Source: a virus
Lineage: Duplodnaviria > Caudoviricetes
Reading direction: 5' to 3' (one strand)
Length of the DNA: 64,000 nucleotides
IMG/VR virus record: IMGVR_UViG_3300037762_000282
Span: 4,850 to 68,849 of that record
Part shown: one piece after another, positions 7,996 to 64,000 of the stretch
How positions within the stretch are numbered: the first letter of the stretch is position 1
Layout: every line of letters starts with the position of its first letter
Program-made: the position numbers and the translations under genes
The notes under the pieces: generated by a model
What the model was told of the DNA's origin: nothing
Database searches by the model: none
The model's input: only the letters and a program-made list of their open reading frames with translations

Positions 7996-8815
7996 CTCCT
8001 TCGTTCTCTCGCCCCGCGGCAGCGACCCCGCCACCATCTCGGCGAGCGACAACGCCGCCGGGACCTCCGCGACCAATCTACTGCTACCGCGGCCGTCGCA
8101 GCTTTGGCAAAGCCAGGTGGACAACCCGGCGGTGCTGGTCGACCTCGGCAGCGCGAAGTCGGTGGACACCCTCTTACTCGGCTACCTCAACGGGGTGAGC
8201 GGCGACGTCTTCCGCCTCCGCGGCGCCGACACCGAGGCCAACCTGACCGCGGCGCCGACGTACGATTCCGACAACGACCATCCGTCGGGGGTCACGGCGT
8301 GGCCGGCGGGCTCCGATCTATCGGCCTACGATCTCCATCACCGGCATTTCGAGTTGGATGCCACCTACACGCTGCGATGGTGGCGGGTGGACTTCAACTT
8401 CGGTGGTAACCCCGACGGCTTCGTCCGTGCTGGTCGCCTGATCCTTGGCGAGCGGGTGGAACCCGCGCACCCCGTGATCTACCCCGCGGCGCTGACCGCC
8501 ACTGAGGCGGTAGCCGAGACGGTGGACTTCGGAGGCGAGGAGAGTCCCCGGCCGCGCGGCACAAAGCGGGCTGTGGGCGCTACCTTCGCGTGGGCGACGA
8601 AGGCTGAGGCGATCATCTTCTACCGCATGATGCTGTGGCTTGGCTCGCATCACGACGTCGCGATCGTGCTGGACAAGACCGACGACGTCGCCCACATGGA
8701 GGTCACCTACTTGGGCCGGGTCAAAGAACCGCAGATCATCAACGCAACGAGCTTCAACCGCTGGGCGGTGACGTTCGAGGTGTCGGAGCTGGGGCCGATC
8801 CCCATGGCCGACTAG
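7988..8815 (+). CDS. Minor tail protein
   Basis: Position in the tail operon; beta-rich 275 aa ORF. Confidence 0.55.
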   Translation: MANSFVLSPRGSDPATISASDNAAGTSATNLLLPRPSQLWQSQVDNPAVLVDLGSAKSVDTLLLGYLNGVSGDVFRLRGADTEANLTAAPTYDSDNDHPSGVTAWPAGSDLSAYDLHHRHFELDATYTLRWWRVDFNFGGNPDGFVRAGRLILGERVEPAHPVIYPAALTATEAVAETVDFGGEESPRPRGTKRAVGATFAWATKAEAIIFYRMMLWLGSHHDVAIVLDKTDDVAHMEVTYLGRVKEPQIINATSFNRWAVTFEVSELGPIPMAD

Positions 8816-29016: not shown

Positions 29017-29630
29017 GAGGCGGCCCCCAAATCAAGCACTCCCTGAGCCATCCTCTTCGCGGCGATCTCGCAGTAGCGCTCTTCGATCTCGATCCCGATC
29101 GCCTTGCGGCCGAGGTCCTTGGCGGCGCGGAGCGTTGTGCCGGAGCCCATGAATGGGTCGAGGATCAGTCCCTCGGTTTCCAGGTACAGGATCGTCCAGC
29201 GCATCACCGACAGAGGCTTCTGGGTTGGGTGCCCGACGCGCTCGCCGTTGGTTGCCGAGATAGAGCATTCCAGGTGGCGCGCGTTGGCGCTCCGGCTGGT
29301 CCAGCACAGCTCAACCGTGCCCATCGACGGAGGGGCGTCAGGCTTGATCCAGCACAGCCACCCGCGAGACCGCGGAAGCGCGAAGTGGTTTCCTCCCCAA
29401 ACCGCCGCCGCGGCGAAGCGCTCCGCCAGCGATGCCACGCCCCCGGCCGGGGCGCTATCCCACGACTCGGGGGTCATCCCGGATCGACGTTGCCACTTCG
29501 TTGGCTGAGCGGCAAAGCCGATGCCGAACGGCGGATCGGTCACCAGCACTCGCGCCTCGGCGACCGGCAGGACCTCCCGGCAGTCCCCGTGGTAGATCGT
29601 GACCGCCTCGTCCTGGTAGTAGGGGCTCAT
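29013..29630 (-). CDS. Amino-DNA methyltransferase (N6A/N4C, beta class)
   Basis: TDPPFG, HPTQKP, LDPFMGSGTT and GIEIEERYC motifs. Confidence 0.92.
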   Translation of the reverse strand: MSPYYQDEAVTIYHGDCREVLPVAEARVLVTDPPFGIGFAAQPTKWQRRSGMTPESWDSAPAGGVASLAERFAAAAVWGGNHFALPRSRGWLCWIKPDAPPSMGTVELCWTSRSANARHLECSISATNGERVGHPTQKPLSVMRWTILYLETEGLILDPFMGSGTTLRAAKDLGRKAIGIEIEERYCEIAAKRMAQGVLDLGAAS

Positions 29631-31243
29631 CCCGCCACCCCGACAGCCCAGACCAGCTCGACCTCGCCGAACGAAACGATCCGCCCTCCCCGCACCACCT
29701 GCACCGTGACCACGGACCGGTCACAACCCGAGCAGGTTGTGTCCAGACCCGGGCCACGGAGCGACAGGTGCACATCGTCCACCCGCCACTTCGGAGACGC
29801 CTCGAACCTGCCGCTCCTACCCTTCGGCTGCTGCCCGGTCGCCGCGATCGTGACGTCCACCCGCTCGACGATCGACCGCAGAATCCGCCACCTCGCCGCC
29901 GCCACGACCGGCTCTTCCAGGGCTGCCGCCGCCGCGTCGAGCGCCCGGTCCAGAGCCCCGCTGCGCGCCGCCTCCATCCGCCGGCGGGCCGAGCGGATCG
30001 TCTCCTCGAGGCGCTTGACCTGCCGGGCCGCCACCTCCCGTTGCTCGGCGAACTCCCCGCGGTCGATCTCGCCGTCCGCTCTCATCGCTACCAGGCGGGC
30101 GAGCCGGGCGACCAACTTGCCGCGCCGCCGCTCCATCGCCTCGATCTCGGCCGCCGGGTCGACCACAGCGCCGGCGCGAGAACGCTCGACCAACTTCCGC
30201 ACCGCGGCCGGGTGGCGCAGCAGCTCGGCGAAGCCGCGCCAGGTCAGGTCGTCCACAGCCTGCCGCCGCACCCAGGCGCCGCTGCCATCCCGGGGCCGGT
30301 AGTAGGAGCCGCCGTGGCTGCGGTCGATCACGACCCTCCTGCCGTCGACCCAGAGCAAGCCGGTCAGCATGCCGGGGAGGCCGGTCGAGGAGCCGCCGCG
30401 GTGGGCGCTCGCGGCCTCCCAAGTCGCGGCGTCGATCAGCGGCTCGTGTGCTCCCTCGACCACGATGGCGTCCGGGTGGCTGGGGTCGAAGTGGAAGGCT
30501 CCGCGGTCGCCGTCGCGCCGCCACGCCCCGTTGACGACCGTGCCGAGGTACGCGGGGTTGGCGAGCACGCGGACGACCGCCGTCTTGCACCACTGCACGC
30601 CGCGAGAGGAGGGGATGCCCTCGGCGTTCAGGCGCTCGGCGATGGCGCGCTGGCCGACTCCAGAAGCCGCCCACCGGAAGATGCGGCGCACGACACCAGC
30701 TTCCTCGGCCACCACCTGTAGCGTGCCGCGGAGCGGATCCCCCGCCGGCGGATTGCTGTATCCGTAGGGAGCTGCGCCCCCGGTGACCTTGCCCTGACGG
30801 GCCTTCTCTCGCTTGCCCCGCTTGACCCGCTCCTTGAAGCGACGAACCTCGGCCGCGTCGACCAGCGAGACGATGCCGAAGGCGAGCCCGTCGGAGGCGT
30901 CGCCCAAGTCCCGGCGCGTGCTGTCCACCCAGACCGCGATCTCCCGCTCGCGCAGCTCCCGCATGAGCAGCGCGACTTCCAGCTCGTCTCCGCGGGTCAG
31001 GCGAGATTGCTCGATACACCAAACGGCGTTCGCCCCGCCGTCGCGGATCGCGTCGAGCACCTGCTGCAGTACGTGGCGCTCGCGGGCTGCGGCCGTGGCG
31101 GACTCAGTGCCCCGGAACTCGGCGACGGTCTGCCAGCCATGGCGTTCGGCCAGCTCGTGGTAGCGGCGGCGCTGGGCGTCGAGCGAGGCACCGCGCTCCT
31201 CTTGCCGATCGGTCGAGACACGGTAGAGGGCTACTACTCGCAC
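29627..31243 (-). CDS. Large serine recombinase (probable integrase)
   Basis: GTG 31243 with RBS GGAGAGG; MRVVALYRVSTDRQ catalytic Ser motif, SRLTR, GAAPYGY recombinase domain and coiled coil. Confidence 0.9.
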   Translation of the reverse strand: MRVVALYRVSTDRQEERGASLDAQRRRYHELAERHGWQTVAEFRGTESATAAARERHVLQQVLDAIRDGGANAVWCIEQSRLTRGDELEVALLMRELREREIAVWVDSTRRDLGDASDGLAFGIVSLVDAAEVRRFKERVKRGKREKARQGKVTGGAAPYGYSNPPAGDPLRGTLQVVAEEAGVVRRIFRWAASGVGQRAIAERLNAEGIPSSRGVQWCKTAVVRVLANPAYLGTVVNGAWRRDGDRGAFHFDPSHPDAIVVEGAHEPLIDAATWEAASAHRGGSSTGLPGMLTGLLWVDGRRVVIDRSHGGSYYRPRDGSGAWVRRQAVDDLTWRGFAELLRHPAAVRKLVERSRAGAVVDPAAEIEAMERRRGKLVARLARLVAMRADGEIDRGEFAEQREVAARQVKRLEETIRSARRRMEAARSGALDRALDAAAAALEEPVVAAARWRILRSIVERVDVTIAATGQQPKGRSGRFEASPKWRVDDVHLSLRGPGLDTTCSGCDRSVVTVQVVRGGRIVSFGEVELVWAVGVAG

Positions 31244-32837
31244 GACCCTCTCCCGACCGCAGCCTCGACGGCGCGAACGAAGTCCACCAACTCCGGAGCA
31301 CCCGTCGGCCTGCGAAGAACGGTCAGGGCGTCTTCGGGGCCGAGGTTGTACGCAGCGCACGCTGCCAGTACTAGGCGGGCGTAGGGGCGATGCTCCGGCC
31401 TCATGCTCCGCAGGAAGCCGAGCACCCGGGACGGCGGCCAATAGGTCCGCTTCGACACCTCAGCAGCGTAGCGCTGCTCGCGGGCAGAGAGGTCGGGTCG
31501 GACCTCGTTGCCGCGCGACATGCGGGCGCGGGCGGCCTCAGCTTCGAGGCTCGCGGCGAGGGAGGGGGCGACTACTCGCACTCGGGATCTCCGAGACATG
31601 GGTAGGCGGCGAGCAGGGCGTCGCGGGCGCGCCCGATAGGTCCCTGGGTCCCGTCCGCCGACGTACCAGCAAATCCCGCGGTCGCCGCCACCAGCTCGCG
31701 CAGCGGGGAGAGGTCTGGCGGCGGGGCGGCGAGGGCGGCGCGCAGATCCGCGACCGTATCCACGCATGCCGCAGGGTCTGAGGAGGCGTCTTCGATCACT
31801 TCCCGTAGCCGCTCGACCTCCAGCCGGGCGGCCAGCAGCTCGGCGTCCTCGGTCGCCGCCTCCCGCTCGATCTCTCGGGACGTTCTCAGCATGGCGGTCT
31901 CCCGGCTCCGGCCCGTGCCTCTCGGTCCGCGGCCACTTCAAGCCAGACCCTCTCCCCGTGGCCCTCCTCCCATTCCACCTCGGCGGCCAGCCCTGGGTCG
32001 CGGGCGCACGCTTCTTCGTAGACGGCGGCGAACGCCGCGCTGAACTCCCGCAGGGCGGCGACAGCCCGCTCGCCGATCTCCCTGATCTCGCCGGGCGTCA
32101 GCATGGCGCCTCCACCCACTCCCGCAGCTCGTCGAGCAGCCGCAGCCGCACGAAGTCCAGGGCCTCCGCCTCGCTCAGGCCGCACTCGGTCAGCGAGGTT
32201 ACCTCGGCGCGAAGCTCAGCCAAGAGCTGCGCCCGGTGCTCTTCGGGGTGCTCGGCAGCCCACCGTAGCCGTTCGAGCGCAAGCTCGCCCCGTACGGCGA
32301 GGGCCTTGTCGATCAGCGAGATCGCGAGCCAAATGCCGATGCAGATCAGAATCGCTTCCATCGTCAGATCCTCACGTGGCAGTACACGCCGATTACGGCC
32401 CACTGGTGGGGCTTGCCGCTCAAGAGCGCCACCTCGGTCATCTTCACCTCGATGGAGTCCGGGGTGAACCCGGTGTCGTCCCGGAAGGACCGCACGGCGG
32501 CCGAGGCCGCGTCGGCGATCTCGTTTTCCATGCGGAGCCTTCTCTTGCGCAACTCGTCAAAGCTATCCGGCGTCATCGCGCCCTCCTCTCCTGAAGTCCT
32601 GAGGCGATCTCCTCAACCGCCTCGACAGTCCACCGCTCCACCAACGCCCGGGCTCCTGCTACGTCGCCCCGATCGAGCGCCGCTAGCACCGCCCCCCGCA
32701 CCCTGACCGACGCCTCCCTGCGCTCCTCAGCGACGGCGAGCAGGGTGTCGGCGAGGGCGCCGTAGTCGGCCTCGTCAGGCGTCGAGAACTGGGCTACTCG
32801 GGCCATAGGCTACCCCGATCCTCCTCGCGACGCACAG

Positions 32838-44678: not shown

Positions 44679-44924
44679 TCACGCCGCCTCCCCGGTGGCC
44701 GATCCGTCCTGGGGGAGTTGGTCGGCGGGGGTCCACCGCCGCGACTCGACGCCGTACAGCATCTCGATCAGCGCGCGGTTGTCGCCGGACGGTCTCTTGA
44801 TCCCCGAGATCCACTCCGAGAGGACGCTCGGCGAGACGCTGAGAGCCTCCGCCATGTCCTTGCGGCGCATGCCCCGCTCTTCGCAGATTCGGGCGAGTGT
44901 CGCGCCCGCCAGTTCGTTCTTCAT
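44679..44924 (-). CDS. Cro-like HTH regulator
   Basis: GMRRKDMAEALSVSPSVLSEWISGIKRP; first gene of the leftward early arm, divergent from the repressor. Confidence 0.8.
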   Translation of the reverse strand: MKNELAGATLARICEERGMRRKDMAEALSVSPSVLSEWISGIKRPSGDNRALIEMLYGVESRRWTPADQLPQDGSATGEAA

Positions 44925-45077
44925 GGGCGAAGTCTCCCACGGCGAACGAACCGTGTCAAGCACTTTCGGCGAGAAAGTCGCAGATAGCGGAGAACTCGCC
45001 TACATTGAGAGAGTTACGGGGTAGGTGCGCATGCACACTTGATTCGCACGCGGCGAACGAGTAGGATCTTCGCCCCA
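44924..45077. promoter_or_regulatory. Divergent lysis/lysogeny switch: two sigma70-like promoters and GGCGA(A/G) operator boxes
   Basis: Leftward TTGACA(44959)-N17-GAGACT; rightward TTGATT(45039)-N17-TAGGAT; GGCGAA-N11-TTCGCC palindrome at 45052..45074. Confidence 0.7.
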
Positions 45078-45535
45078 TGCGAATCGCGGAGCGCATCGGA
45101 CCGGCCCTAGAGCGACTGCGGCGAGAGCGCGGCCTCACCCAGAGCGAGGTCGAGAGGCGGGCTGAGATGACGCCGCGCTCGCTGACGAAGTACGAGCGGC
45201 CACGACGCTCATATTCGTGGTCGTCGATCGAGAAGATCCTCGACGCCCTCGACGCCGACCTCCTGGACCTGTACCAAACCCTGACCGGCGAGCCGCCGTC
45301 CCCTTCGCCGCCTCCGCCGCCCGTCAACGCTGAAGGCGCCGATGAGCCGATCGACAGATTCGCAGTTCGGCTCGCCGTCGAGGCACTGCGAGACCGCGGG
45401 GCCGTAAAGGAGTTGAAAGAAATCGCGATGTCTGGCAAGCTCCCCGATCTACAGCGCGCGGGTGAGACATCGGGGCGGGTAGACAAAGGGACAGCCCCCG
45501 TGCGCGGGAAAGCGGCCCGTGGGAATGGGAGCTAA
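45077..45535 (+). CDS. CI-like XRE repressor (no S24 peptidase domain)
   Basis: LERLRRERGLTQSEVERRAEMTPRSLTKYERP..IEKILDAL. Confidence 0.82.
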   Translation: MRIAERIGPALERLRRERGLTQSEVERRAEMTPRSLTKYERPRRSYSWSSIEKILDALDADLLDLYQTLTGEPPSPSPPPPPVNAEGADEPIDRFAVRLAVEALRDRGAVKELKEIAMSGKLPDLQRAGETSGRVDKGTAPVRGKAARGNGS

Positions 45536-46547
45536 GTTGGATCGCCACCTACCAACCCTTGCTGACCTCAGCATGCTCCCCTCGAGGGCGCGATGCCACC
45601 GCCTCGAGGTCAGCGACGATCTGCGCACGCCGGGCCTGCTGGAGCTGCTGATGGTCGAGGCCCGAGGGCGCGGCCGGCGGGCGATCGGGTGGGCCTACTC
45701 CGCGATCTCCGCCGCCGAGCGGCCGGAGGACCAGGCCCTCGGCTACGCCCTGCTCGGTCAGGCGCTCCGCCGGGAGGCGTGCCTCTCCGCCGCGGCCAGC
45801 GCGTTCGACCGGGCGGCCGACCTGATCCCCGCCGAAGGTGACCCGGACCTCCGCGCCGAAGCGCTCGGCCTGGTCGGCAGGTGGCGTCAGCACCTCCGGG
45901 ACTTCGACGCCGCCGGCGAGCTGCTCCGCGCCGCCCTCGACCTCATGCCGCCGGGCACCGATCGGCACCTGCATCTGCGGATCGCAGAGGCAACGCGGCG
46001 GGGGCAGGCCGGCCAGCCGGGGGCGGCGACGAACGCCCTGGCAACGATCGCCCTGGAACTGCGCGAGCGGAAGGCGGCGGACGAATGGCTCGATCTCGTG
46101 GTCGGGCACAACCTCGCCTCCATGCTCACCCTCGCCGGCGAGCACGATCTCGCCCTCCGGACCCTGATCGAGCTGCGCGCGCTCTACCTCCGGACCGCCG
46201 GCCAGTCCTACGCCTACAAGGCCAACTGGCTCGCCGGCCGGATCGCCCTCGACCTCGGACAGCACGAGGCGGCGGACGCGCAGCTCTCATCCGTCGCTGC
46301 GTCGGCCAACCTCCGCGACCCGATCGACTGCGGCCTACTGGAGCTGGAGCGGGCACACGCTGCACTCGGCTGCGGCCGGTGGGCGGAGGCGGGTCAGCGG
46401 GCAACCCGGGCGGCGGGTCTACTCGGAGGCCTCGGCATCCGCGTCGAGGCGACGGCAGCGGCGATCACGGCAGCGGAGGCGATCCAGGCTGGGCAGGTGC
46501 AGGCGCTGGCTGCGGTGGTCGCCGCGCGGCGGCGGATGGGGGCGTAG
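45519..46547 (+). CDS. Tetratricopeptide-repeat protein, candidate peptide receptor
   Basis: Repeated A/L/G helical TPR-like units (ALGYALLGQAL, GHNLASML, WLAGRIAL); overlaps the repressor stop. Confidence 0.75.
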   Translation: MGMGAKLDRHLPTLADLSMLPSRARCHRLEVSDDLRTPGLLELLMVEARGRGRRAIGWAYSAISAAERPEDQALGYALLGQALRREACLSAAASAFDRAADLIPAEGDPDLRAEALGLVGRWRQHLRDFDAAGELLRAALDLMPPGTDRHLHLRIAEATRRGQAGQPGAATNALATIALELRERKAADEWLDLVVGHNLASMLTLAGEHDLALRTLIELRALYLRTAGQSYAYKANWLAGRIALDLGQHEAADAQLSSVAASANLRDPIDCGLLELERAHAALGCGRWAEAGQRATRAAGLLGGLGIRVEATAAAITAAEAIQAGQVQALAAVVAARRRMGA

Positions 46548-47226
46548 CCCGTGCTAAACTCGCCGTTGATGCTGTCGCCATCGTCCATCCCTTGGCCCGC
46601 GACCTTCGACGGCGTGCCCTACGCCTCCATCGGCGAGCCCTCGATCGAGCAGCGCACGAGGGAGTTGATCGCTGCCAAGGCGCTCAAGCTCGCAACAGAC
46701 TGGATGCGCTCCAACCCAGGACGCGGGACTCCCCGCATCCTGATCGTGTGGCCTGAGCCGTCGGCCGAGCAGAGTGTCGTCCACCTCATAGTCGACGAAC
46801 ACTGCACTGGACACCTAGAATGGGGACCGGAGGTGAGACCATGAGACGGTGGCTGTTCCGCAATCCTTACCGGCGTACCACCCTCAAGGCGCTGGCGGTT
46901 CGGATGCCGCTCCGCTGGTGGCGGTCATGGGCGCGGCTGCTCTGGAAGACGCGCCAGCACCCGCGGCTGCGGCGCGCCGGCTGGATCGCCCACATGTACC
47001 GCCACGCCTACGCGCAGAGCCTGATCGTCGCGGTCGACGCGGCTCGGCGGCTGAGGCGGTTCGGCTCGCGCGAGGAAGCGACACGCGCCCAAGTCCGTTC
47101 CTTCAACGCACGCCTGAGGCTCAACAGCATCGGCGCTCAGGAGCGGATCGCGCAGTTGCAGCAGCAGCTCGCCGAGGTCGGATAGCGGCCGAGCCTGGGG
47201 GCGGTCGGACTCGGCCGCTTCAACCT

Positions 47227-47460
47227 CTAGCCCCCGGGGTCGATCTCCGGCCCCGAGTCCCCCTCCCCTCCCCCGTTGCTCTGCTCCGGCGGAGCGGCCG
47301 GCGCCGGCGGACCGAGCACCGCCCCGACCATCGCCTCCACCCACCCCCGCACCACCTCCACCCAGGATCGCTCCATCCGCTCCTGCTCGAGCGGCGCCGC
47401 GACCGCCGGCACCGCCCCGATCAGTACGACCGCGACTACCAGACAGATGAGCTTGCGCAT
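47227..47460 (-). CDS. Small secreted pre-pro-peptide (77 aa) ending GDSGPEIDPGG
   Basis: RBS AAGGGGGAG; signal MRKLICLVVAVVLIGAVPAVA-A; W-rich amphipathic middle; Pro/Gly linker. Confidence 0.75.
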   Translation of the reverse strand: MRKLICLVVAVVLIGAVPAVAAPLEQERMERSWVEVVRGWVEAMVGAVLGPPAPAAPPEQSNGGGEGDSGPEIDPGG

Positions 47461-47596
47461 GTGCTCCCCCTTCCGAGCTGGCGGCACGGCCGAGATTGGC
47501 CGGGACGCCAGACCCTTCGCCCCCTGAGTGTATCGGCTTATCGAGATGGGAGCATGGGGTTGCGGCCGGCGGGGTGCGGGAGTAGGCTCGGGCGCA

Positions 47597-48043
47597 GTGA
47601 CGAAGACTCAGGGGCGGGCCAAGTCTGCGGGTAGCGGTTGCATAATCGCTGGCGTCTCCGTCGTCGGAGGATGGCTGGTTTTGGTCGCCTTCGTCGTCTT
47701 CGGCGGTGGCGTCTTCAGCGGGGTTGACCGGCGCCAGCCAGCCAGCACCTCTCCGGTAGAGGAGGAGGCCGAGGTGGCCCCGGAGCCTCTGCACAGCAAG
47801 GTGGAGGCGTACGTTTACTGCAAGATGCTGGTGCGCAACAGCCTCAAGGCACCGGCTACGGCCGTCTTCCCTCGGGAGTCCTACACCGATGTGACGGTGG
47901 ACCAGGGGGGAGGTCGGTACTCTGTACGGTCCTACGTAGATGCTGAGAACTCGTTCGGTGCGCTGATCCGAAGCCGGTACGAGTGCACCGTCAAGAGCGT
48001 CGGGAGAAAGCGGTATGAGGTGGTGAACTTGGTGATCGGTTGA
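47597..48043 (+). CDS. Membrane-anchored conserved hypothetical protein
   Basis: TM helix, then LKAPATAVFP..YVDAENSFGALIRSRYEC. Confidence 0.6.
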   Translation: MTKTQGRAKSAGSGCIIAGVSVVGGWLVLVAFVVFGGGVFSGVDRRQPASTSPVEEEAEVAPEPLHSKVEAYVYCKMLVRNSLKAPATAVFPRESYTDVTVDQGGGRYSVRSYVDAENSFGALIRSRYECTVKSVGRKRYEVVNLVIG

Positions 48044-48317: not shown

Positions 48318-48611
48318 ATGGCTCGCTCGCCCGCAAAGACTCGCCCTTCTCCCTCTCTTGAGATCCGCTACGTTCCCATCGCGGAGGCTGTGCCGTGGGA
48401 CCGCAACCCCAAGCGCGACGACATCGGCTCCCTGGTGCAATCGATCCAGCGCTACGGCTTTCGCGACGCCCCGATCTTCGACTCCACGCTGGGCGCCATA
48501 GCAGCGGGAAACGGCTTCGGCCTGGAGATCAGCCCGGAGTACGTCGCGGTCATCCTCGAGCGGGCGGAGAAGTTCGGCCTCACGCCGAAGCTGGAGAGCG
48601 GCGATGCCTAA
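48318..48611 (+). pseudogene. Internally deleted ParB-methyltransferase remnant
   Basis: ParB N-terminus (PWDRNPK..QSIQRYGF..AAGNG) joined directly to an MTase C-terminus (FGLEISPEYVAVILER). Confidence 0.65.
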
Positions 48612-49017
48612 GAAGGGTGCCAAGAAGCGCCCCGCGGGTCGTCCCCGCTTCGAGTTCGACATGGGCCTCGTCGAGCGCTTGGCGCAGATCAGTTGCACGG
48701 ACGGCGAGATCGCCGCGGCCTGCGGCTGCTCGGTTGACACCCTCGCTCGGCGCAGGGCTGATGAGCCCGGTTTTGCGGAGACCATAGAAAGGGCTCGCGA
48801 AGCGGGGAAATCCTCGCTTCGCAGGGCGCAGTGGAAGGCGGCCCTCTCCGGGGATCGGACCATGCTGATCTGGCTCGGAAAGCAGCACCTCGGCCAGCAG
48901 GACAAGTCTGCCCACGAGCACTCCGGTCCGGGCGGCGAGCCGATCCAGGTCAAGCGGATCGAGATGGTGATCGTCGATGCCGGCGACGGCGACAGCGGAA
49001 CCAGCGCTCCGGATTGA
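48604..49017 (+). CDS. terS: Terminase small subunit
   Basis: GRPRFEFD..CTDGEIAAACGCSVDTL..SLRRAQWKAA..MLIWLGKQHLGQ; directly upstream of terL. Confidence 0.75.
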   Translation: MPKKGAKKRPAGRPRFEFDMGLVERLAQISCTDGEIAAACGCSVDTLARRRADEPGFAETIERAREAGKSSLRRAQWKAALSGDRTMLIWLGKQHLGQQDKSAHEHSGPGGEPIQVKRIEMVIVDAGDGDSGTSAPD

Positions 49018-50275
49018 GGTCCCGCGCCCTCTCCGCCCGCTGCTCGCGCCGGCGCGGTACAAGGGAGCGCACGGCGGCCGCGGTGGTTGCAAGAGCCACT
49101 TCTACGCCGGCCTCCTGATCGCCCGTGCCATGTCGCAGCCCGGGCTCCGGGCGGTCTGCATCCGGGAAGTGCAGCGCAGCCTCGAGCAGAGCGTCAAGCG
49201 TCTCCTCGAGGACAAGATCGAGGCCCTCGGCGTCGGCGCGCACTTCCGCGTGCTCAACACCCACATCGAGACGCCGGGCGGCGGGATCATCATCTTCCAG
49301 GGGATGCAGAACCACACCGCCGAGAGCATCAAGAGCTTGGAGGGCTACGACCTCGCTTGGGTCGAGGAGGCGCAGGCCCTCAGTCAGCGATCGCTCGACC
49401 TGCTGCGCCCCACGATCCGCAAGGAGGGGAGCGAGCTGTGGTTCTCGTGGAACCCCCGGAGTGCCAGCGATCCGGTAGACGCCTTCCTGCGCGGGGAGAA
49501 TCCGCCGCCTGCGTCGGTGGTCGTCAAGACGAGCTGGCGAGACAACCCGTGGCTCCCCGATGAGCTGCGGGCGGAGCTGGAATGGGATCGCCGTCGGGAC
49601 CCTGCCAAGTATGCGCACGTCTGGGACGGCGAGTACCTCCAGAGGACCGAGGCCCTGGTCTTCCGCAACTGGGAGGCCAAGGAGTTCGACACACCCGCCG
49701 ATGCCCGCTTCTACTTCGGCGGCGACTGGGGGTTCTCGGTCGACCCCGCCGTGCTCGTGCGCTGCTGGATCGACGGCCGCAAGCTCTACATCGACGGCGA
49801 AGCCTACGCGGTGGGCTGCGAGATCGACTACCTGCCGTTCCTCTTCGGGGGCTGCGAGGACGGGGAGTTGCAGACGCTCTGCGCCGACGCCTGGAAGGCG
49901 ATCCCTCGAAACTACCAGGCGTGGCGCGGGATCGAGGGTGCCCGGAAGTGGCCGATCATCGCCGACTCACAGCGGCCCGATACCATCAGCTATCTCAAGC
50001 GGCACGGCTTCCCGAAGATCGAGCCGGCGACCAAGGGGGCGGGGAGTGTCGAGGAGGGGGTCGAGTGGCTCCAGAGCTACGACGTCGTCGTTCATCCCCG
50101 ATGCCGGCACACGATTGACGAGCTGTCGACCTACAGCTACAAGACCGACCGGCTCACCGATGAGGTGCTGCCCGTGCTCGAGGACAGTCGGAACCACGTC
50201 ATCGACTCGGTGCGGTATGCGGTCGAGAAGGTGCGGCGCGGTCGCCTACCGAGCGGGACCTGCCAATTGCGCTAG
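48977..50275 (+). CDS. terL: Terminase large subunit, PBSX/SPP1-type (headful)
   Basis: GGRGGCKSH Walker A, CIREVQRS, IKSLEG, WVEEA, FSWNP, DWGFSVDP, NHVIDSVRYA. Confidence 0.95.
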   Translation: MPATATAEPALRIEVPRPLRPLLAPARYKGAHGGRGGCKSHFYAGLLIARAMSQPGLRAVCIREVQRSLEQSVKRLLEDKIEALGVGAHFRVLNTHIETPGGGIIIFQGMQNHTAESIKSLEGYDLAWVEEAQALSQRSLDLLRPTIRKEGSELWFSWNPRSASDPVDAFLRGENPPPASVVVKTSWRDNPWLPDELRAELEWDRRRDPAKYAHVWDGEYLQRTEALVFRNWEAKEFDTPADARFYFGGDWGFSVDPAVLVRCWIDGRKLYIDGEAYAVGCEIDYLPFLFGGCEDGELQTLCADAWKAIPRNYQAWRGIEGARKWPIIADSQRPDTISYLKRHGFPKIEPATKGAGSVEEGVEWLQSYDVVVHPRCRHTIDELSTYSYKTDRLTDEVLPVLEDSRNHVIDSVRYAVEKVRRGRLPSGTCQLR

Positions 50276-50286
50276 AGTGAGAACCC

Positions 50287-58255: not shown

Positions 58256-59347
58256 CTATCCCTCGGAGTCTCTGGTCAGGTATGAGGTCGCAATCAGCAG
58301 CAGGTGAGCCTCATCGGCGCGGCTGAGCTTCGCCCGCCACCGCTCAACGGTGATCGAGCCGTTCTCCTCATCACGAACCCCAACGATAAACACGCGGTCC
58401 CAAGTGGTCTCGCCGGAGACGATCTCGGCCAGGAGCTGCTCTAGACAGTCGCGGACGGTCCAGTCTTGAGAATCCCTGGAGCGCATCGCCTTGCCGGCGC
58501 CGAAGTTCACAGGCTTCACCGCTCGTCCTGCCTTCGCTGGAAGTACTCGTGCCCGAGCTTTTCTCGAACAATCTTCGCCCTCTCGCCCTCCGGCACGCCT
58601 TGGGCCGCGAGCGATGCGTGTTCCAGGCTTCTCGCCGCCAGCTCAGGGTTCGCCCTCTCGCTTCCCGGCTCGATCGGCGCGAAGTACGACCAAGCACTCC
58701 GACGGTCCGCGTCGGCACAGGCTCGCAGGCAGTCCTTGCAGCCGACGACGTACTCCCCGCGTTCGTCTACTCGGACCGTCAGGGCATAGCTCCCGCACGA
58801 CGGGCAGCAGCCCTCCTGGTCCAACGGGGAGAACGGGGCACGCGGGAGATTGAGGTCAAGCTTCATCGCGCTTTCTCCTTCGCCGGCTCGGATTGCGTGG
58901 AGTCCACCACGAGGTCGACCGCGTAGGTCGCGCCGCAGTTGTGGCACGGAACCCCGCTCCAACTGGCGGTAGCCGCGCCGTGCACGGGCGCCGTGCCGAC
59001 GAATACAACCTTGGCGCCGCAACCGGGGCACCGAAAGGACCCTGATACCGGAATGTCGCCGCCGCCAGGACCAGTCGGCACGGACCGTAACCCGCCGCCG
59101 TCTGGATCTGGGGATTCTCGGAAAAGTGGCTCTTTGACGTATCCCGCGACCTTCATCTGGCCCTCTCCTTCGCCCGCTCGATCGCCGCCACCGCGTCCTC
59201 CCGCCTGATCCGGTACTCCCGCAGCGGCCTGGTAGCCGGTACCTCGCCGACCTCGATCAGCGCGTAGACGGTCCGCTTGCCGACGCCGAGTGTGCGGGCG
59301 AGCTGGCCGGCGGTCACGAACTCAACGCCTTCGGGCAACGCGGTCAT
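58256..59347 (-). other. Minus-strand moron cassette of four small genes (58256..58519, 58516..58866, 58863..59156, 59153..59347 excisionase-like HTH)
   Basis: ATGA-coupled ORFs; CxxC Zn-ribbon motifs; HTH_17 motif FVTAGQLARTLGVGKRTVYALIEVGEVPA; TAGAAT 6 nt before ATG 59347. Confidence 0.7.
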
Positions 59348-59779
59348 GCCGTGATTCTAGACGCGTTCGTCCCGTTCGGCGAGTTTACCGCATTTGTGCA
59401 TCCCGGGGTTTTCCTCTCCTCCCTGCCGCGCTACAACCCCCGGCAGGGGATGAACATCAACGCTCAATCTTGCGGGTCAGGGTCGCGCGGGGTGGTCTCC
59501 ATCCCTCGGCTGCCTTTCTCGCCCGCCGAGCTGGGGAGAGACCGCGCGCCCCGCCGGCCCCGCGAGGTGTTTATGCGGTGGATCGGGTTCAGCTCTACGT
59601 ACCGTCGGCTTACCCAGTGGCGCCGAGTGCTGTGCAAGCGAGGCGCATCGGTGATGCGGGCCAGAGGGCGACGCACTTACGGCAAACCCGGATGGCCGGT
59701 CTTCCGGAAGTGCGCCAGTCGAGCCAAGGGAAAGCCGCAGACCGTCGCGGAATGACGCCAAGAGGATGAGCAAGATTAG

Positions 59780-59944
59780 ATGGCGCAGACAACCGTCACG
59801 CTGAAGGTTTCAGAGTTCCCCGGGGTGATCGCCGGGCTACGGCGCGCCATCGCCGAACGCCTCCGCTCCGAAGCTGATGGAGAGCCCGAGTTTGTGGCCT
59901 CCAAGCTGCGGAAGATTGCCGCCGACTTCGAGGCCGGGCAGTGA
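59780..59944 (+). CDS. Small inserted ORF (54 aa)
   Basis: MAQTTVTLKVSEFPGVIAGLRR..., flanked by an 11-bp direct repeat TGAGCAAGATT. Confidence 0.5.
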   Translation: MAQTTVTLKVSEFPGVIAGLRRAIAERLRSEADGEPEFVASKLRKIAADFEAGQ

Positions 59945-60399
59945 GCAAGATTGCAGACGAGCTGATCGCCGAGGTCACGAAGCAGTATCTCGACTTCCGG
60001 GGCGGGCGGGTCGCTGCCACCTTCCTCGACGTCGCCAACTCTCTAGCCCCCGTCAAAGAGGGTGCACTCAAGGCCGGGATTCAGGCGTTCAGCGGCTCGC
60101 CGCCCGAGGCGTTCGACACGCCGGAAGAGGCGCCCGCTCGAGACACCCGCGCCGGTACGCCGGCCCCCGCAGCAGCGAAAGCCGCAGCGCTCAAGTTGTC
60201 GCACGAGGCCGGTCTCGAGAAGACCTACGGATTCGCCTCGGCCGCCAGCTACAGCTCCTATCAGGCCGAGGGGACGGCGACCATCACGGCCCGCCCCTAC
60301 TGGCAGGCGGCGCTCGCAGCGGCCGGGACAGTGACGGCAGGACCCTCGGCGCCGTCAGGCGGCGGACGGCAGCGCGACTCGCGCGGGAGGTTCCTGTGA
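59941..60399 (+). CDS. Tail completion protein (HK97 gp10-like)
   Basis: LAPVKEGALKAGI..YSSY..GTATITARPYW. Confidence 0.7.
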   Translation: MSKIADELIAEVTKQYLDFRGGRVAATFLDVANSLAPVKEGALKAGIQAFSGSPPEAFDTPEEAPARDTRAGTPAPAAAKAAALKLSHEAGLEKTYGFASAASYSSYQAEGTATITARPYWQAALAAAGTVTAGPSAPSGGGRQRDSRGRFL

Positions 60400-61199
60400 G
60401 CCTCTACCACGAGGCCGTGCTCGACCTCCGCGCCCTGGCTACGGCGGTGATCCCGCTGCCGGCCGATCGCATCGACTGGTCGGCCTTCGGCGCCGTCGGC
60501 ATCGACAAGCCAGGGCCGTCGATCCTGAATCCAGCGGATGGCGTGTGGGCGCGCGTGGTGCTGGCGGGCGAGGCGCCGAGCGGCGAGGGCGGTTGGAGCT
60601 GGGCCGAGAAGATCGGGACGATCGTGATCGAGCTGCGCTCGGAGTCGCCGGCCGATCAGGACCTCAGCGGGCTGGCCGTCATGGCCGGCGAGATCGAGAG
60701 CGATTTGAAGCGCACCGAGGTGGGCACGATCGGATTCGAGTCGGCGTGGACCGTCAGCGTCGATACCCAGCAGTCCCGCCAGCAGCTCAACGTCCTCGCC
60801 ATCTATCGCCGCATCGAGTACGACGCGGAGACCAACACCAGGGAGCCGCTGGCAGTGAACTACACCATCCCCGGCCACAGCTTCACGGCGATGCAACTGG
60901 TCCGACCAACCGGAGCCGGAACCTTCGCGTTGGCGCTGGCCGACGATCCCGCCAACTGCGCCCAAGCGCTGATTGTTTCGGTAGTCGGCGACCGCGTCTC
61001 CATGCGCCACCGCGGGCCGGTGCGGATCACCCACGGGCTCGGCGATGGGACTGGCCTAAACAACAACGTCTACGCGTCTCAGGCGGTGGCCGGCGCTCCG
61101 ACCGTCACCACCCCCGGAGCCGGCGTAGCGCAGCGCGTTGGCGTGATCGTCTCGACCACCGAACTGCTCCTCACGTTCGATCAACCCGAAGTCCAGTAG
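60396..61199 (+). CDS. Tail terminator with an extra C-terminal decoration-like domain
   Basis: GTG 60396; terminator-like N-half, then HSFTAMQLVRP..VYASQAVAGA..QRVGVIVSTTELL. Confidence 0.6.
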   Translation: MSLYHEAVLDLRALATAVIPLPADRIDWSAFGAVGIDKPGPSILNPADGVWARVVLAGEAPSGEGGWSWAEKIGTIVIELRSESPADQDLSGLAVMAGEIESDLKRTEVGTIGFESAWTVSVDTQQSRQQLNVLAIYRRIEYDAETNTREPLAVNYTIPGHSFTAMQLVRPTGAGTFALALADDPANCAQALIVSVVGDRVSMRHRGPVRITHGLGDGTGLNNNVYASQAVAGAPTVTTPGAGVAQRVGVIVSTTELLLTFDQPEVQ

Positions 61200-61208
61200 G
61201 AGACCACC

Positions 61209-61463
61209 ATGCCCGAGATCGTTCTGTTCAACAGCCACCCCGGGGCGCTCCGCCTCGAGTGTGACCTCCCCGAGCTGAGGCGCATCGACGCGCTGATCGT
61301 TCGGGGCGACAAGAAAGGACCGCACACCCGCTCCGAGGTGGCGGAGGCCGAGCACCTCGCCAAGCACCCCGCCTGGCTCAAGGACGCCGAGCGCGCCGCC
61401 AAGCCCGCGGTGACCGAGCAGGTGAAGCCCGCCAAGAAGGCGGAGAAAGAGGGTAACCGCTGA
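61209..61463 (+). CDS. Hypothetical protein
   Basis: RBS AGGAG; precedes the tube gene. Confidence 0.55.
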   Translation: MPEIVLFNSHPGALRLECDLPELRRIDALIVRGDKKGPHTRSEVAEAEHLAKHPAWLKDAERAAKPAVTEQVKPAKKAEKEGNR

Positions 61464-62695
61464 TGCGCTCCGAGCACACCACCATCGGGGTCGCGACCGA
61501 GTCCGCCTACGGAACGTGGCCCACCGCCGACAAGCAGCTCCTGCTGGTCAAGGACGCCACCCCGACGTACGACCGCAACTATCAGGCGCCGGCGTTCTGG
61601 AGTGGAGACGCCAACTCCTACCCGTCGGAGTTCCTGGACGAGGGCGGAAATCTGTCCCTGCCATCCGACCTCGTCTACGAGAACTACCTCCCCCTCTACG
61701 AATCGCTTATGGGCGCGGCTCGCGGCGCTGCGAAGTCGGAGGTCGACGTCGACATCGACGCCACCTCCGGCGTGCTCGCCACAGCGGGAGCGGCAGACTT
61801 CTCTGGGTTCCAGGTCGGGGACATGCTGTTTCTCGACGGCGCCGGCATCGCGCCGAACGTCGCCGAGTGGTACGGCCCGGTGTTGACGAAGAGCGCTACC
61901 GCCCTGACGCTGGCGACCGGCACGACGCAGCTCGCAGACTTCGCGGCCGGCGGTCAGGTGCGCATCCGTTCGCGCCGTCTGATCCCGGGCAACACCGACA
62001 TCTCGCTCGCCTGGGAGATGCAGCTCCTACGGCTCACCAACCGATTCATCATCGGCGAGGGCTACGGCGTCGGACAGATCGAGTGGAACATCCAGAAGGG
62101 CAACTTCCTGGGCGAGGTGGCTACCCTCATGGGGCAGGAGTTCAGCCCCGCCGCCGCGACCGCTGCAACCGGCACGATCGCCGCCAAGACCACCGATCCG
62201 ATGCGCCCCGCTCAGGGTGGTGTCGGTCGGATCTATCTCGCGGACGGCACTGTCGCGATGGGCGCTCCGCTCGCATCGACCATCGTGGTGAGCGAGTACG
62301 CCCAGCGGTGGACACACAACCAGGAGGGCATCAAGGGCCTCCCCACCGACGGCCCGCAGGCGCTCGACCGCGGCAACTGGGATGGCAGTCAGTTCACGGC
62401 CCGGGTGCGCCTCGACGACACCGCCTGGGCGCTCCTGGTGAACCCCGTCAAGAACAACACCACCATGCAGGCGGGCATCTCGGTCAAGGACAAGCAGGGG
62501 AATCGGATGTTCTTCTTCCACCCCGCTTGCCGGCCGCAGGGTGACATCGAGTTCGGCACCCGCGGCACGACCGTCTTCCATCCCCTGACGTTCCCGATCC
62601 ACGACCCGGTCAAGGACGGTACGTCGATCTACAACGCCGCCGGCTTCGGTTACCAACACGCCATGTTCTTCGTGCCGGTCGAGGCGCTGCCGTAA
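61463..62695 (+). CDS. Major tail (tube) protein
   Basis: MRSEHTTIGVATESAYGT tube-like N-terminus; upstream of TAC/TMP. Confidence 0.8.
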   Translation: MRSEHTTIGVATESAYGTWPTADKQLLLVKDATPTYDRNYQAPAFWSGDANSYPSEFLDEGGNLSLPSDLVYENYLPLYESLMGAARGAAKSEVDVDIDATSGVLATAGAADFSGFQVGDMLFLDGAGIAPNVAEWYGPVLTKSATALTLATGTTQLADFAAGGQVRIRSRRLIPGNTDISLAWEMQLLRLTNRFIIGEGYGVGQIEWNIQKGNFLGEVATLMGQEFSPAAATAATGTIAAKTTDPMRPAQGGVGRIYLADGTVAMGAPLASTIVVSEYAQRWTHNQEGIKGLPTDGPQALDRGNWDGSQFTARVRLDDTAWALLVNPVKNNTTMQAGISVKDKQGNRMFFFHPACRPQGDIEFGTRGTTVFHPLTFPIHDPVKDGTSIYNAAGFGYQHAMFFVPVEALP

Positions 62696-63402
62696 TGAGC
62701 ACAGAAACCAACGGCGCTCCAGCGACTGCCCAGGGAGCGACCATCACGGTCAACCTGCCGAAGGGTGCGGATGCGAGGGAAGCGGCGCGCCGGGCAGTGA
62801 AGGCCGGCGCCGCGCTGGTCCTCGAGAAGGACATCCCCGTTCCCGCTAACGTCGCCGAGCTGTTCCGCATGGAAGAGGAGGGATGGCCGTCGGTGCTGGC
62901 CTTCCCCTCCCCCGCTGGCCCGGTCGCGTTTCGCCTTCTGATCAGCAACAGCCTGGAAGTCCGAGAGGAGATGCAGAAGGCCGCCGAGCAGCACAGCCGC
63001 GACTACACCGCCTGGTACGAGTCGCTGAAAGAGAAGCAAAAGCAGATCAACGACGCGAAGGCCGAGTACGACGCCAGCGAGGACAAGGACGAATCGAACG
63101 CTCGGGTCAAGGCCCTGCTCGAGGAGTCGGTCGAGCTGCTGAAGGACGGCCAGCGCATCGCCGAGGCCGACTACGGCCGCGTCTTCGACACTGGCGTCAT
63201 CACCGGATGGAAAGAGGAAGAGATCGGCCTGCCCTTCAACCGCGAGAGCTTCATCTCCCTCGCCACCCGCTCCGGCGGTGCCCTGGTGCAGGGCGTGCGC
63301 GCCCGCTTCAGACAGCTCGTGCAGCCCAGGTTGGAGGTCCTGGACAGCGAGGGGGAAGCCTCATCGCCCGAGCAGGATGGTACGGCCAGCTCGGGCGGCT
63401 GA
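62695..63402 (+). CDS. Tail assembly chaperone (copy 2)
   Basis: Near-identical to 290..1009; slippery GGGGGAA at 63351..63357, with the -1 frame open to 63704. Confidence 0.75.
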   Translation: MSTETNGAPATAQGATITVNLPKGADAREAARRAVKAGAALVLEKDIPVPANVAELFRMEEEGWPSVLAFPSPAGPVAFRLLISNSLEVREEMQKAAEQHSRDYTAWYESLKEKQKQINDAKAEYDASEDKDESNARVKALLEESVELLKDGQRIAEADYGRVFDTGVITGWKEEEIGLPFNRESFISLATRSGGALVQGVRARFRQLVQPRLEVLDSEGEASSPEQDGTASSGG

Positions 63403-63684
63403 AGGAAAGCGACCTGGAGACCGAGTATCAACTTTTCATCGAGGGCGAACCAGGCACTCTCTACGGTCGGGAGCCGAGTCCGCGGCCGATCCTCTCGTTT
63501 CTCGAGGATGAGTTCTGGGATGTTGACCGCGACGTCAACGGTGGACTCTCCCGCATGTGCATCGATCATGCCCTGGCTCAGCGTGCCGAGCGCTGGCCGG
63601 AGTTGGGTCACCCCGCGGCGATGAGGATCTGCCGCGGCATCCTCCGGCAGATGAACATCAAGTACAGGGAAGAGAAGCGGGCCG

Positions 63685-64000
63685 ATGGCGCAGCTAATCG
63701 TTGAGGTCAACGACAAGGACTCGATCAAGCGGGTCGTAGCCGCGCTCAAGGGTCTTGGCGTCACCGGCGATCAGGTCAAGGCCAAGGTCGGCGGCGTTGG
63801 AAAGCCTCTGTCCGACCTTGAGCGGACCGGCGTCCCCGCCGTCGACGGTCTGATCGGAAAGTTCAAGGGCCTCGGTCCGGCAGCGATCGCGGCGGGGGTG
63901 GCGATCGGCGGCGTCGTCCTCGGCATCAAGCTATTCACCGCGGCCGTCTCCGCCGCCAAGCGCGTGCTCGATGAGGGAGTGCGGGCGTGGGCTCCCTACG
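63685..64000 (+). CDS. Tape measure protein 5' end (copy 2, truncated by the window)
   Basis: MAQLIVEVNDKDSIKRVV matches 1292 onward. Confidence 0.9.
   Translation, partial: MAQLIVEVNDKDSIKRVVAALKGLGVTGDQVKAKVGGVGKPLSDLERTGVPAVDGLIGKFKGLGPAAIAAGVAIGGVVLGIKLFTAAVSAAKRVLDEGVRAWAPY

Follow-up and report, generated by a model that had tools for sequence, protein, structure and literature searches.

Peptide signalling of the RRNPP type is treated as a feature of Bacillota (PMC10075063), and two other papers describe RRNPP and arbitrium signalling for Bacillota and their mobile elements (PMC9765709, PMC12700828). In Rap–Phr, including the Rap proteins of phages phi3T and Phi105, a stand-alone tetratricopeptide repeat (TPR) protein with an N-terminal three-helix bundle and without a DNA-binding domain acts on a separate response regulator, and its exported C-terminal pheromone is encoded by phr, directly downstream and co-directional. 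Arbitrium (AimR–AimP–AimX), found in SPbeta-like Bacillus phages, lies at the lysis–lysogeny control region of the phage; AimR carries its own helix-turn-helix (HTH), aimP immediately follows aimR with the same orientation and the mature peptide of six residues has the motif xxxxGG/A. In NprR–NprX, PlcR–PapR and Rgg–SHP, an XRE-type HTH and the TPR share one chain. Some SHP genes are convergent with rgg. Here, we describe a 64,000-nucleotide stretch of viral DNA (the window), which represents most of the 68.8 kb IMG/VR contig IMGVR_UViG_3300037762_000282 and has a G+C content of about 69%. It carries an XRE-family repressor gene, a gene for a stand-alone TPR protein and a convergent gene for a small precursor ending in DPxG. 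This trio is a real, conserved and unannotated module at the phage lysis–lysogeny switch; quite possibly it serves a temperate phage as an immunity module of three components that responds to a peptide, with a function like that of arbitrium, a tentative reading that we see as close to evenly balanced.

The module is closest in logic to Rap–Phr and arbitrium and is a member of neither by the tests run (profile, gene order, motif and phylum). Like arbitrium, it is borne by a phage at the lysis–lysogeny control region and combines a cytoplasmic helical-repeat protein of TPR type with a small pro-peptide bearing a signal peptide and a partly conserved C-terminal motif. Unlike AimR, however, the TPR protein of the window has no HTH, stands beside a separate CI-like XRE repressor and gives no AimR sequence or profile match; the peptide gene is convergent in all loci, the motif is GPxxDPxG, no AimX-like target was identified in the window and the host is probably an acidobacterium rather than a member of Bacillota. 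An earlier note on this DNA had called the system arbitrium-like, a description that agrees with its lysis–lysogeny location, predicted TPR-type fold and small precursor with a signal peptide and does not fit the gene order. As judged by genes and predicted fold, the module shares with Rap–Phr a stand-alone TPR protein without a DNA-binding domain, a separate regulator and a pro-peptide with a signal sequence, and Rap is among the best structural matches of the TPR protein; the profile match is only at E = 2e-4 and lies among generic TPRs. The convergent peptide gene and the proposed XRE partner distinguish the module from Rap–Phr, as does the N-terminal three-helix bundle of Rap. The logic of an XRE-type HTH combined with a TPR is common to NprR, PlcR, Rgg and the module, and fused XRE–TPR relatives exist, whereas in the window the HTH and TPR are encoded by separate, overlapping genes with no significant sequence relationship to these regulators. 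A literature search found no published description of the module, no paper joining RRNPP with Acidobacteria and nothing relevant on peptide signalling in Acidobacteriota.

Conservation of the three-gene module

The repressor gene, the 342-residue TPR gene that overlaps it and the convergent 77-residue signal-peptide gene ending in EIDPGG are all present in the window as the earlier note had described them (Table 1). The TPR protein has very few close relatives: three clusters among 5.8 billion proteins, all on phage-like contigs. A hidden Markov model (HMM) search of 1.8 billion representatives gave 211 proteins at E < 1e-10; a subgroup of stand-alone TPR proteins of about 356–390 residues shows 25–30% identity across the whole length. 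Linkage was counted over 15 distinct loci, the window lineage included, each of which encodes a stand-alone TPR of the subfamily. In all 15, an XRE (HTH_31) gene is found directly upstream of the TPR gene, overlapping its start in 13 and lying about 110–150 nt ahead of it in L051 and L020, and a convergent small open reading frame (ORF) is found downstream; its product ends in DPxG at 14 loci and, at the remaining one, in DPLGAC. The division of HTH and TPR between two genes, also proposed in the earlier note, is real and conserved across loci, and the TPR–peptide linkage among homologs, the absence of which that note had named as a refutation, holds in 15 of 15.

The small ORF abuts or overlaps the TPR stop codon except in the window lineage, where 0.7–1.1 kb of other genes intervene. 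Other genes fill this gap in L003 and L007, the intervening DNA being unrelated among the window, L003 and L007; there are none in the Acidobacteriota loci or in L005, where the TPR gene (product 45% identical to that of the window) and the peptide gene overlap by 4 nt. The pairing has thus withstood rearrangement, since the DNA between the two genes is unrelated or absent and yet the peptide gene is retained.

Several of the small DPxG ORFs had previously not been called as genes. Among the 945 open frames of 14 loci, 13 end in DP.G, compared with 0–1 for each permuted control motif (n = 11); the peptide of L020 was seen separately. The window contains exactly one open frame with this ending, the peptide gene, whose ATG is preceded by a strong Shine–Dalgarno-like purine run. 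Its G+C content by codon position (0.81/0.51/0.91) is like that of the coding genes of the window, and all module genes score as coding. Between close relatives, synonymous codon differences in the peptide gene outnumber non-synonymous ones (for example, 10 versus 2), and the gene appears to be under purifying selection. These observations bear on the possibility that the TPR protein is a co-repressor or anti-repressor sensing a host cue unrelated to the peptide, with the small ORF hitch-hiking or non-functional. We regard this as highly improbable, given the recurrence of the trio in every locus at a TPR identity of 25–30%, the signs of purifying selection, the coding-type G+C content at third codon positions (GC3) and the motif enrichment.

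Phage immunity regions make up at least eight of the loci; these have a divergent Cro-like gene, small early genes and ERF, HNH, terminase, phosphoadenosine phosphosulfate (PAPS) reductase or PHROG-only neighbours; some other module loci look chromosomal. Three lie on contigs of metagenome-assembled genomes (MAGs) labelled as Acidobacteriota (GCA_039028635.1 and MFD05747.bin.2.183). A pattern scan of genome contigs gave nothing with the phage-clade alignment and only the known MAG locus with the Acidobacteriota subfamily alignment, and pattern scans of metagenome contigs, and of viral contigs with a second alignment, gave no further loci. One locus has a distinct arrangement (L056, positions 2501–5094), in which a single XRE gene is followed by two tandem TPR paralogs and the convergent peptide ends in a C-x6-DPLG-x-C loop instead of a free DPxG.

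Table 1. Features of the locus in the window and C-terminal sequences of the small ORF products in the homologous loci.
Feature	Position or locus	Strand	Observations
Cro-like HTH gene	44679–44963	-	HTH_3, E = 8e-9; PHROG repressor/regulator families; GC3 0.86
Divergent control region with candidate operators	44964–45076	.	Inverted repeats
XRE-family repressor, 152 aa	45077–45535	+	HTH_31, E = 1.2e-10; PHROG transcriptional repressor/regulator families
Stand-alone TPR-fold protein, 342 aa	45519–46547	+	Superhelix in AlphaFold2 model; sub-threshold Pfam TPR; HMM relatives
ORF of unknown function, 97 aa	46551–46844	+	No family match; between TPR and peptide genes
ORF of unknown function, 121 aa	46820–47185	+	No family match; between TPR and peptide genes
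GC-rich hairpin between convergent genes	47186–47219	.	dG -26.2 kcal/mol, z -1.8 (modest)
Pre-peptide gene, 77 aa	47227–47460	-	Sec-type signal, Trp-rich amphipathic helix, Pro/Gly/acidic linker, C-terminal GPEIDPGG
Membrane-anchored protein	47528–48043	+	phrog_13160, E = 4.6e-19; divergent from peptide gene, starts ~67 nt apart
C-terminal octamer	L002, window, L003, L007		GPEIDPGG
C-terminal octamer	L005		GPEIDPNG
C-terminal octamer	L011		NPGADPDG
C-terminal octamer	L013		NPGADPNG
C-terminal octamer	L015		GPENDPNG
C-terminal octamer	L016		GPTTDPDG
C-terminal octamer	L020		RGNMDPNG
C-terminal octamer	L051		RGSSDPDG
C-terminal octamer	L052		GPSADPDG
C-terminal octamer	L053		GPAGDPDG
C-terminal octamer	L054		GPVADPDG
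C-terminal octamer	L055		GSGSDPDG
C-terminus	L056		Cys-bracketed variant ending DPLGAC

The TPR protein

The GTG start of the TPR gene overlaps the XRE stop codon by 17 nt (11 nt from an alternative ATG at 45525), an overlap that suggests translational coupling of the two genes. The long 342-residue form is favoured over a 324-residue database call because the N-terminal 18 residues align with homologs. The AlphaFold2 (AF2) model is an 18-helix TPR superhelix with a predicted local distance difference test score (pLDDT) of 85 and a predicted template-modelling score (pTM) of 0.79. The protein is predicted to be cytoplasmic, with no signal peptide or transmembrane segment in its sequence. No HTH was found in it by Pfam or in the AF2 model, a Pfam scan gave only sub-threshold TPR matches and neither the TPR protein nor the peptide has a covering family in Pfam, NCBIfam, PHROG or PADLOC (the last for defence systems).

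Fold comparison matched the TPR protein with the Rap protein of phage Phi105 in complex with its peptide (8rte; Z = 21.5, r.m.s.d. of 3.5 over 275 residues), NprR–NprX (Z = 19.8), PlcR–PapR (Z = 19.0) and, with template-modelling (TM) scores of about 0.6, phi3T Rap and RapJ; the Rap entry 4gyo has a TM score of 0.64. The top VIA match was the C-terminal-degron receptor APPBP2 (Z = 24.2), and generic TPR proteins (LGN and consensus TPRs) fall in the same range of fold scores as the RRNPP receptors; no AimR chain was among the fold matches listed. A profile search of the PDB with the TPR protein gave RapJ (E = 2e-4), RapH (8e-3) and a Bacillus TPR regulator (0.03), with designed and generic TPRs ranking above all three. 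The modelled fold is compatible with a peptide receptor, but is not diagnostic of one.

The peptide precursor

The peptide gene converges on the TPR gene, its stop codon lying 680 nt beyond that of the TPR gene. At the N-terminus of its product is a Sec-type signal composed of a basic n-region, a hydrophobic core and A-x-A, and at the C-terminus is GDSGPEIDPGG. Direct reading, with no topology predictor used, showed no membrane-anchor-like segment in the post-cleavage peptide. A sorting signal of VPEID-CTERM type was considered for the C-terminus and dropped, as no transmembrane segment or basic tail follows the motif. By direct reading, 11 of the 15 module precursors share one plan: a basic n-region, hydrophobic core and A-x-A come first, followed by a Trp-rich amphipathic helix that ends in Gly, then by a Pro/Gly/acidic linker that varies in length and lastly by the terminal G/N-P-x-x-D-P-x-G. 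Within the motif, variation falls on the two residues that precede D-P and on the residue between P and G.

Several precursors hold 2–7 copies of an xxDPxG unit. Tandem pheromone propeptides are known in RRNPPA systems (PMC11343458). In the prophage of an Acidobacteriota MAG (L011, positions 7692–8237), two divergent small ORFs lie ~3 kb beyond the module copy. One, of 78 residues, encodes a signal peptide and five tandem GP(H/F)ID(P/L)xG units and the other, of 81 residues, about seven xxDPNG-like units; both look like poly-peptide precursors of the DPxG family, and no receptor for them was seen in the locus.

Co-inheritance of the TPR protein and the peptide

With one locus taken per close clade, the identity of the octamer is correlated with that of the TPR protein (Mantel r = 0.46, p = 0.003). 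More telling than this correlation is L005, in which the octamer follows the TPR clade and not the precursor body: the body is 61% identical to that of L055 and 51% to that of the window, whereas the octamer matches the window at seven of eight positions and L055 at four, and the TPR protein is 45% identical to that of the window and 29% to that of L055.

The TPR gene is mosaic in the window clade. Its first ~270 codons show 95% DNA identity to L003 or 62% to L007, while the last ~75 codons (46330–46547) and the peptide gene (47227–47460) show about 88% in all comparisons, and these two segments appear to share one history. The last ~40 residues of the TPR protein are nearly invariant even at 45% overall identity. 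In L005, 24 of the last 30 residues are identical despite 17 synonymous changes, which argues that the constraint on the TPR C-terminus acts on the protein.

Wider TPR family in Acidobacteriota

The TPR domain of the window matches a family in Acidobacteriota by HMM (E values of 1e-17 to 1e-27). Most of the remote relatives are proteins of about 440–460 residues that carry an anti-sigma-type zinc-finger head (zf-HC2) on the same TPR domain, while in others the head fused to it is an XRE-type (HTH_31) or AraC-type HTH. The 6.2 Mb MAG MFD05747.bin.2.183 (Acidobacteriota) encodes 14 paralogs of the TPR domain (E values of 1e-40 to 1e-135; loci L019–L026). Three of its zinc-finger paralogs have an ORF with a DPxG terminus immediately upstream on the same strand, one of them with three tandem units; in the window, by contrast, the TPR stands alone and the peptide gene is convergent. 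Most paralogs of this MAG are longer frames with anti-sigma zinc-finger heads, and a DPxG ORF occurs within 1.5 kb of only some of them. At a threshold of E = 1e-20, a match to the TPR family was present in 12 of 301 sampled Acidobacteriota genomes, so that only some lineages of the phylum carry it.

Across these proteins the TPR domain appears to be the constant partner of the DPxG peptides, with output head and gene order varying. The HTH_31–TPR and AraC–TPR fusions argue for cooperation between HTH and TPR, and by the Rosetta-stone rule the existence of fused XRE–TPR relatives suggests that the split XRE and TPR proteins of the window act together. The split XRE protein showed no sequence similarity to the N-terminus of the one fused XRE–TPR relative with which it was compared.

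The repressor and the control region

The XRE gene and the Cro-like HTH gene are divergent around a control region, as in a CI/Cro-type switch. The Cro-like product has 94 residues from a GTG start, or possibly 81 from an ATG at 44924, and is encoded by the first gene of the leftward early operon. In the AF2 model, the five-helix HTH of the XRE protein (residues 1–72) is followed by a Pro-rich linker, a pair of helices modelled with low confidence and a tail that is disordered, with pLDDT values above 90 over residues 1–70 and below 60 thereafter. The arrangement of divergent HTH repressor genes around a candidate operator region is that of lambda-type CI/Cro; whereas lambda-type CI has a C-terminal S24 (LexA-like) domain for self-cleavage and oligomerization, no S24 peptidase domain was found in the XRE protein by Pfam and no confidently folded C-terminal oligomerization domain in its AF2 model.

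A 17-nt inverted repeat (45041–45057 and 45069–45085) covers the XRE start and a related repeat (44912–44951) covers the alternative Cro start; both starts lie within CTTCGCCC(C)ATG. These repeats are candidate operators. The half-site is not enriched across the whole window, and a scan for sigma-70 promoters gave nothing useful near the module.

Compared with L003 (positions 4208–4800), the corresponding part of the window (44679–45300) differs strongly in the HTH part of the XRE protein and in the Cro-like protein, the modules being otherwise 96% related. The XRE tail, TPR and peptide are retained despite this difference, which suggests that the two phages are heteroimmune and yet share a sensor/peptide unit.

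Genes between and beside the module

The two ORFs between the TPR and peptide genes appear, from their distribution among the loci, to lie outside the conserved module. The hairpin that follows them may be a bidirectional terminator. Further to the right, a 97-residue ORF (48318–48611) resembles phage DNA methyltransferases (phrog_498 and phrog_620) in their ParB-like N-terminal part only; it may be a truncated remnant, since L007 holds a full N6_N4 methyltransferase of 441 residues at the corresponding place.

The membership of the phrog_13160 gene in the module is uncertain. Its product shares 27% identity (E = 3e-12) with that of the gene that occupies the equivalent place next to the module in the Acidobacteriota prophage L011. 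Such synteny in a distant prophage would suit a further explanation, namely that the small protein is itself an exported effector (of a lysogenic-conversion, exclusion, bacteriocin-like or ribosomally synthesized and post-translationally modified peptide-like kind), with the XRE and TPR proteins only regulating its expression or giving immunity and the peptide not being a ligand of the TPR. The convergent layout would allow control by transcriptional interference, and the Gly/Pro/Asp-rich C-terminus with its conserved helix recalls a leader–core organization. We nevertheless consider an exported effector improbable. The surroundings of the 15 loci have no conserved gene for a maturase, a transporter or immunity; the same type of peptide accompanies TPRs with three output heads and in different gene orders, which points to the TPR domain as the constant partner; and the octamer follows the TPR clade.

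The phage and its host

The phage, from soil, is temperate, since the window carries terminase genes, an M15-type endolysin and a large serine integrase (29627–31441). Leftward early genes meet rightward late genes at 44.7–48.0 kb, with the terminase to the right. Structural genes exit the right end of the window and resume at its left end (48600–64000 and 1–25000), so that the contig looks circularly permuted.

The host is probably an acidobacterium, because module loci lie on Acidobacteriota MAGs, the TPR family is multi-copy there and language-model neighbours are mostly from Acidobacteriota; these neighbours, clusters found for both the TPR protein and the peptide, are to be taken as leads only. 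The nearest cellular relatives of the system are found in Acidobacteriota MAGs, outside Bacillota, and the suggestion of the earlier note that the system resembles families of Thermoanaerobaculia agrees with this at the level of the phylum only. Among deposited phages, only the terminase gene was matched by the DNA of the window. A TerL search did not assign the host, the best named matches being alphaproteobacterial prophages (64–69%) and metagenome contigs being closer (80%). None of five TPR-rich Acidobacteriota genomes yielded the capsid-region protein, and spanins, a sign of a diderm host, were not recognized by eye beside the M15 endolysin.

Proposed mechanism and functional implications

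We propose that the XRE protein, an HTH with a floppy tail, would act as the CI-like repressor of a divergent CI/Cro-type switch and that the TPR protein, probably co-translated with it, would supply the sensor and assembly function that fused HTH–TPR regulators hold in one chain. The convergent small gene would encode a Sec-exported pro-peptide, the C-terminal G-P-x-x-D-P-x-G-COOH of which would be the ligand, released outside the cell and re-imported into the cytoplasm. Once bound to this peptide, the TPR protein would alter the activity of the XRE repressor, so that the choice between lysis and lysogeny would depend on how dense related phages or lysogens are. We infer contact between the XRE and TPR proteins, binding of the peptide by the TPR, the steps of export, processing and re-import and the direction of the effect.

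A number of observations weigh against such signalling between cells. The likeness of the TPR fold to RRNPP receptors is no better than its likeness to generic TPR proteins, and co-descent alone could produce the correlation between TPR and octamer. Among TPRs of 45–63% identity the C-terminal motif hardly changes, and this clade of phages appears to have little allelic diversification of the arbitrium kind. Since the presumed host is diderm, the peptide would have to cross an outer membrane twice. The Trp-rich helix, which is conserved to the same degree as the C-terminal motif, is given no role by the proposed mechanism. Finally, the precursors of L011, L013 and L054, together with that of L026, which lies beside a longer paralog, have only 30–38 residues and no Sec signal, starting directly with the Trp-rich or hydrophobic helix. 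Because these four relatives are leaderless, the step common to the whole family may be intracellular and a purely extracellular route is not assured.

The short precursors hint at an intracellular partner switch with no cell-to-cell signal, in which the C-terminus or the Trp-rich helix of the small protein would be bound by the TPR protein, the repressor would be controlled by the balance between free and bound TPR, and export, where it occurs, would merely remove an inhibitor. In the type III secretion system of Shigella, the TPR chaperone IpgC co-activates MxiE after its secreted clients have left. More generally, in IpgC–MxiE and in TPR carboxylate-clamp receptors (Hop, PEX5 and APPBP2), a TPR reads the extreme C-terminus of a partner or a secreted client and relays this to a transcription factor; the module, however, shows no homology to them beyond the TPR fold, has no secretion apparatus and has a client that is a Sec substrate. 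A switch of this type fits the leaderless variants, which retain the helix and the C-terminal motif without the Sec signal, the conservation of the helix in all forms of the peptide and the common use of TPR grooves to clamp the free C-termini of whole proteins, the top fold match being a C-degron receptor. Against it, the classical cleavable signal peptide read directly in 11 of 15 precursors would quickly separate the small protein from the cytoplasmic TPR, and tandem short units suit released peptides better. Firmicutes are known to have communication peptides that lack a leader (PMC10518010), so that the absence of one would be compatible with signalling. On balance, we consider an intracellular switch unlikely, although it is the main alternative.

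Returning to signalling by an exported peptide, it is possible, although we lean somewhat against it, that peptide-based phage communication has arisen independently of RRNPP and arbitrium in temperate phages of diderm soil Acidobacteriota, with a stand-alone TPR reading the exported GPxxDPxG and controlling a CI-like repressor. If so, peptide quorum sensing and arbitrium-type phage decisions would not be confined to Gram-positive bacteria. Should the peptide be sensed by the TPR, peptide signalling through TPR receptors would extend to a major soil phylum that is difficult to culture and has an outer membrane, and would include a new architecture in which the sensor is split from the CI-like repressor; the module would also offer a compact set of ligands and receptors, with natural variants at three motif positions, that could be tested in vitro without culture of the host. 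Even if the action of the small protein were intracellular, the trio would represent a conserved and unannotated control of a phage repressor. The module extends the theme of peptides and TPR receptors outside Bacillota, and a communication function for it is plausible.

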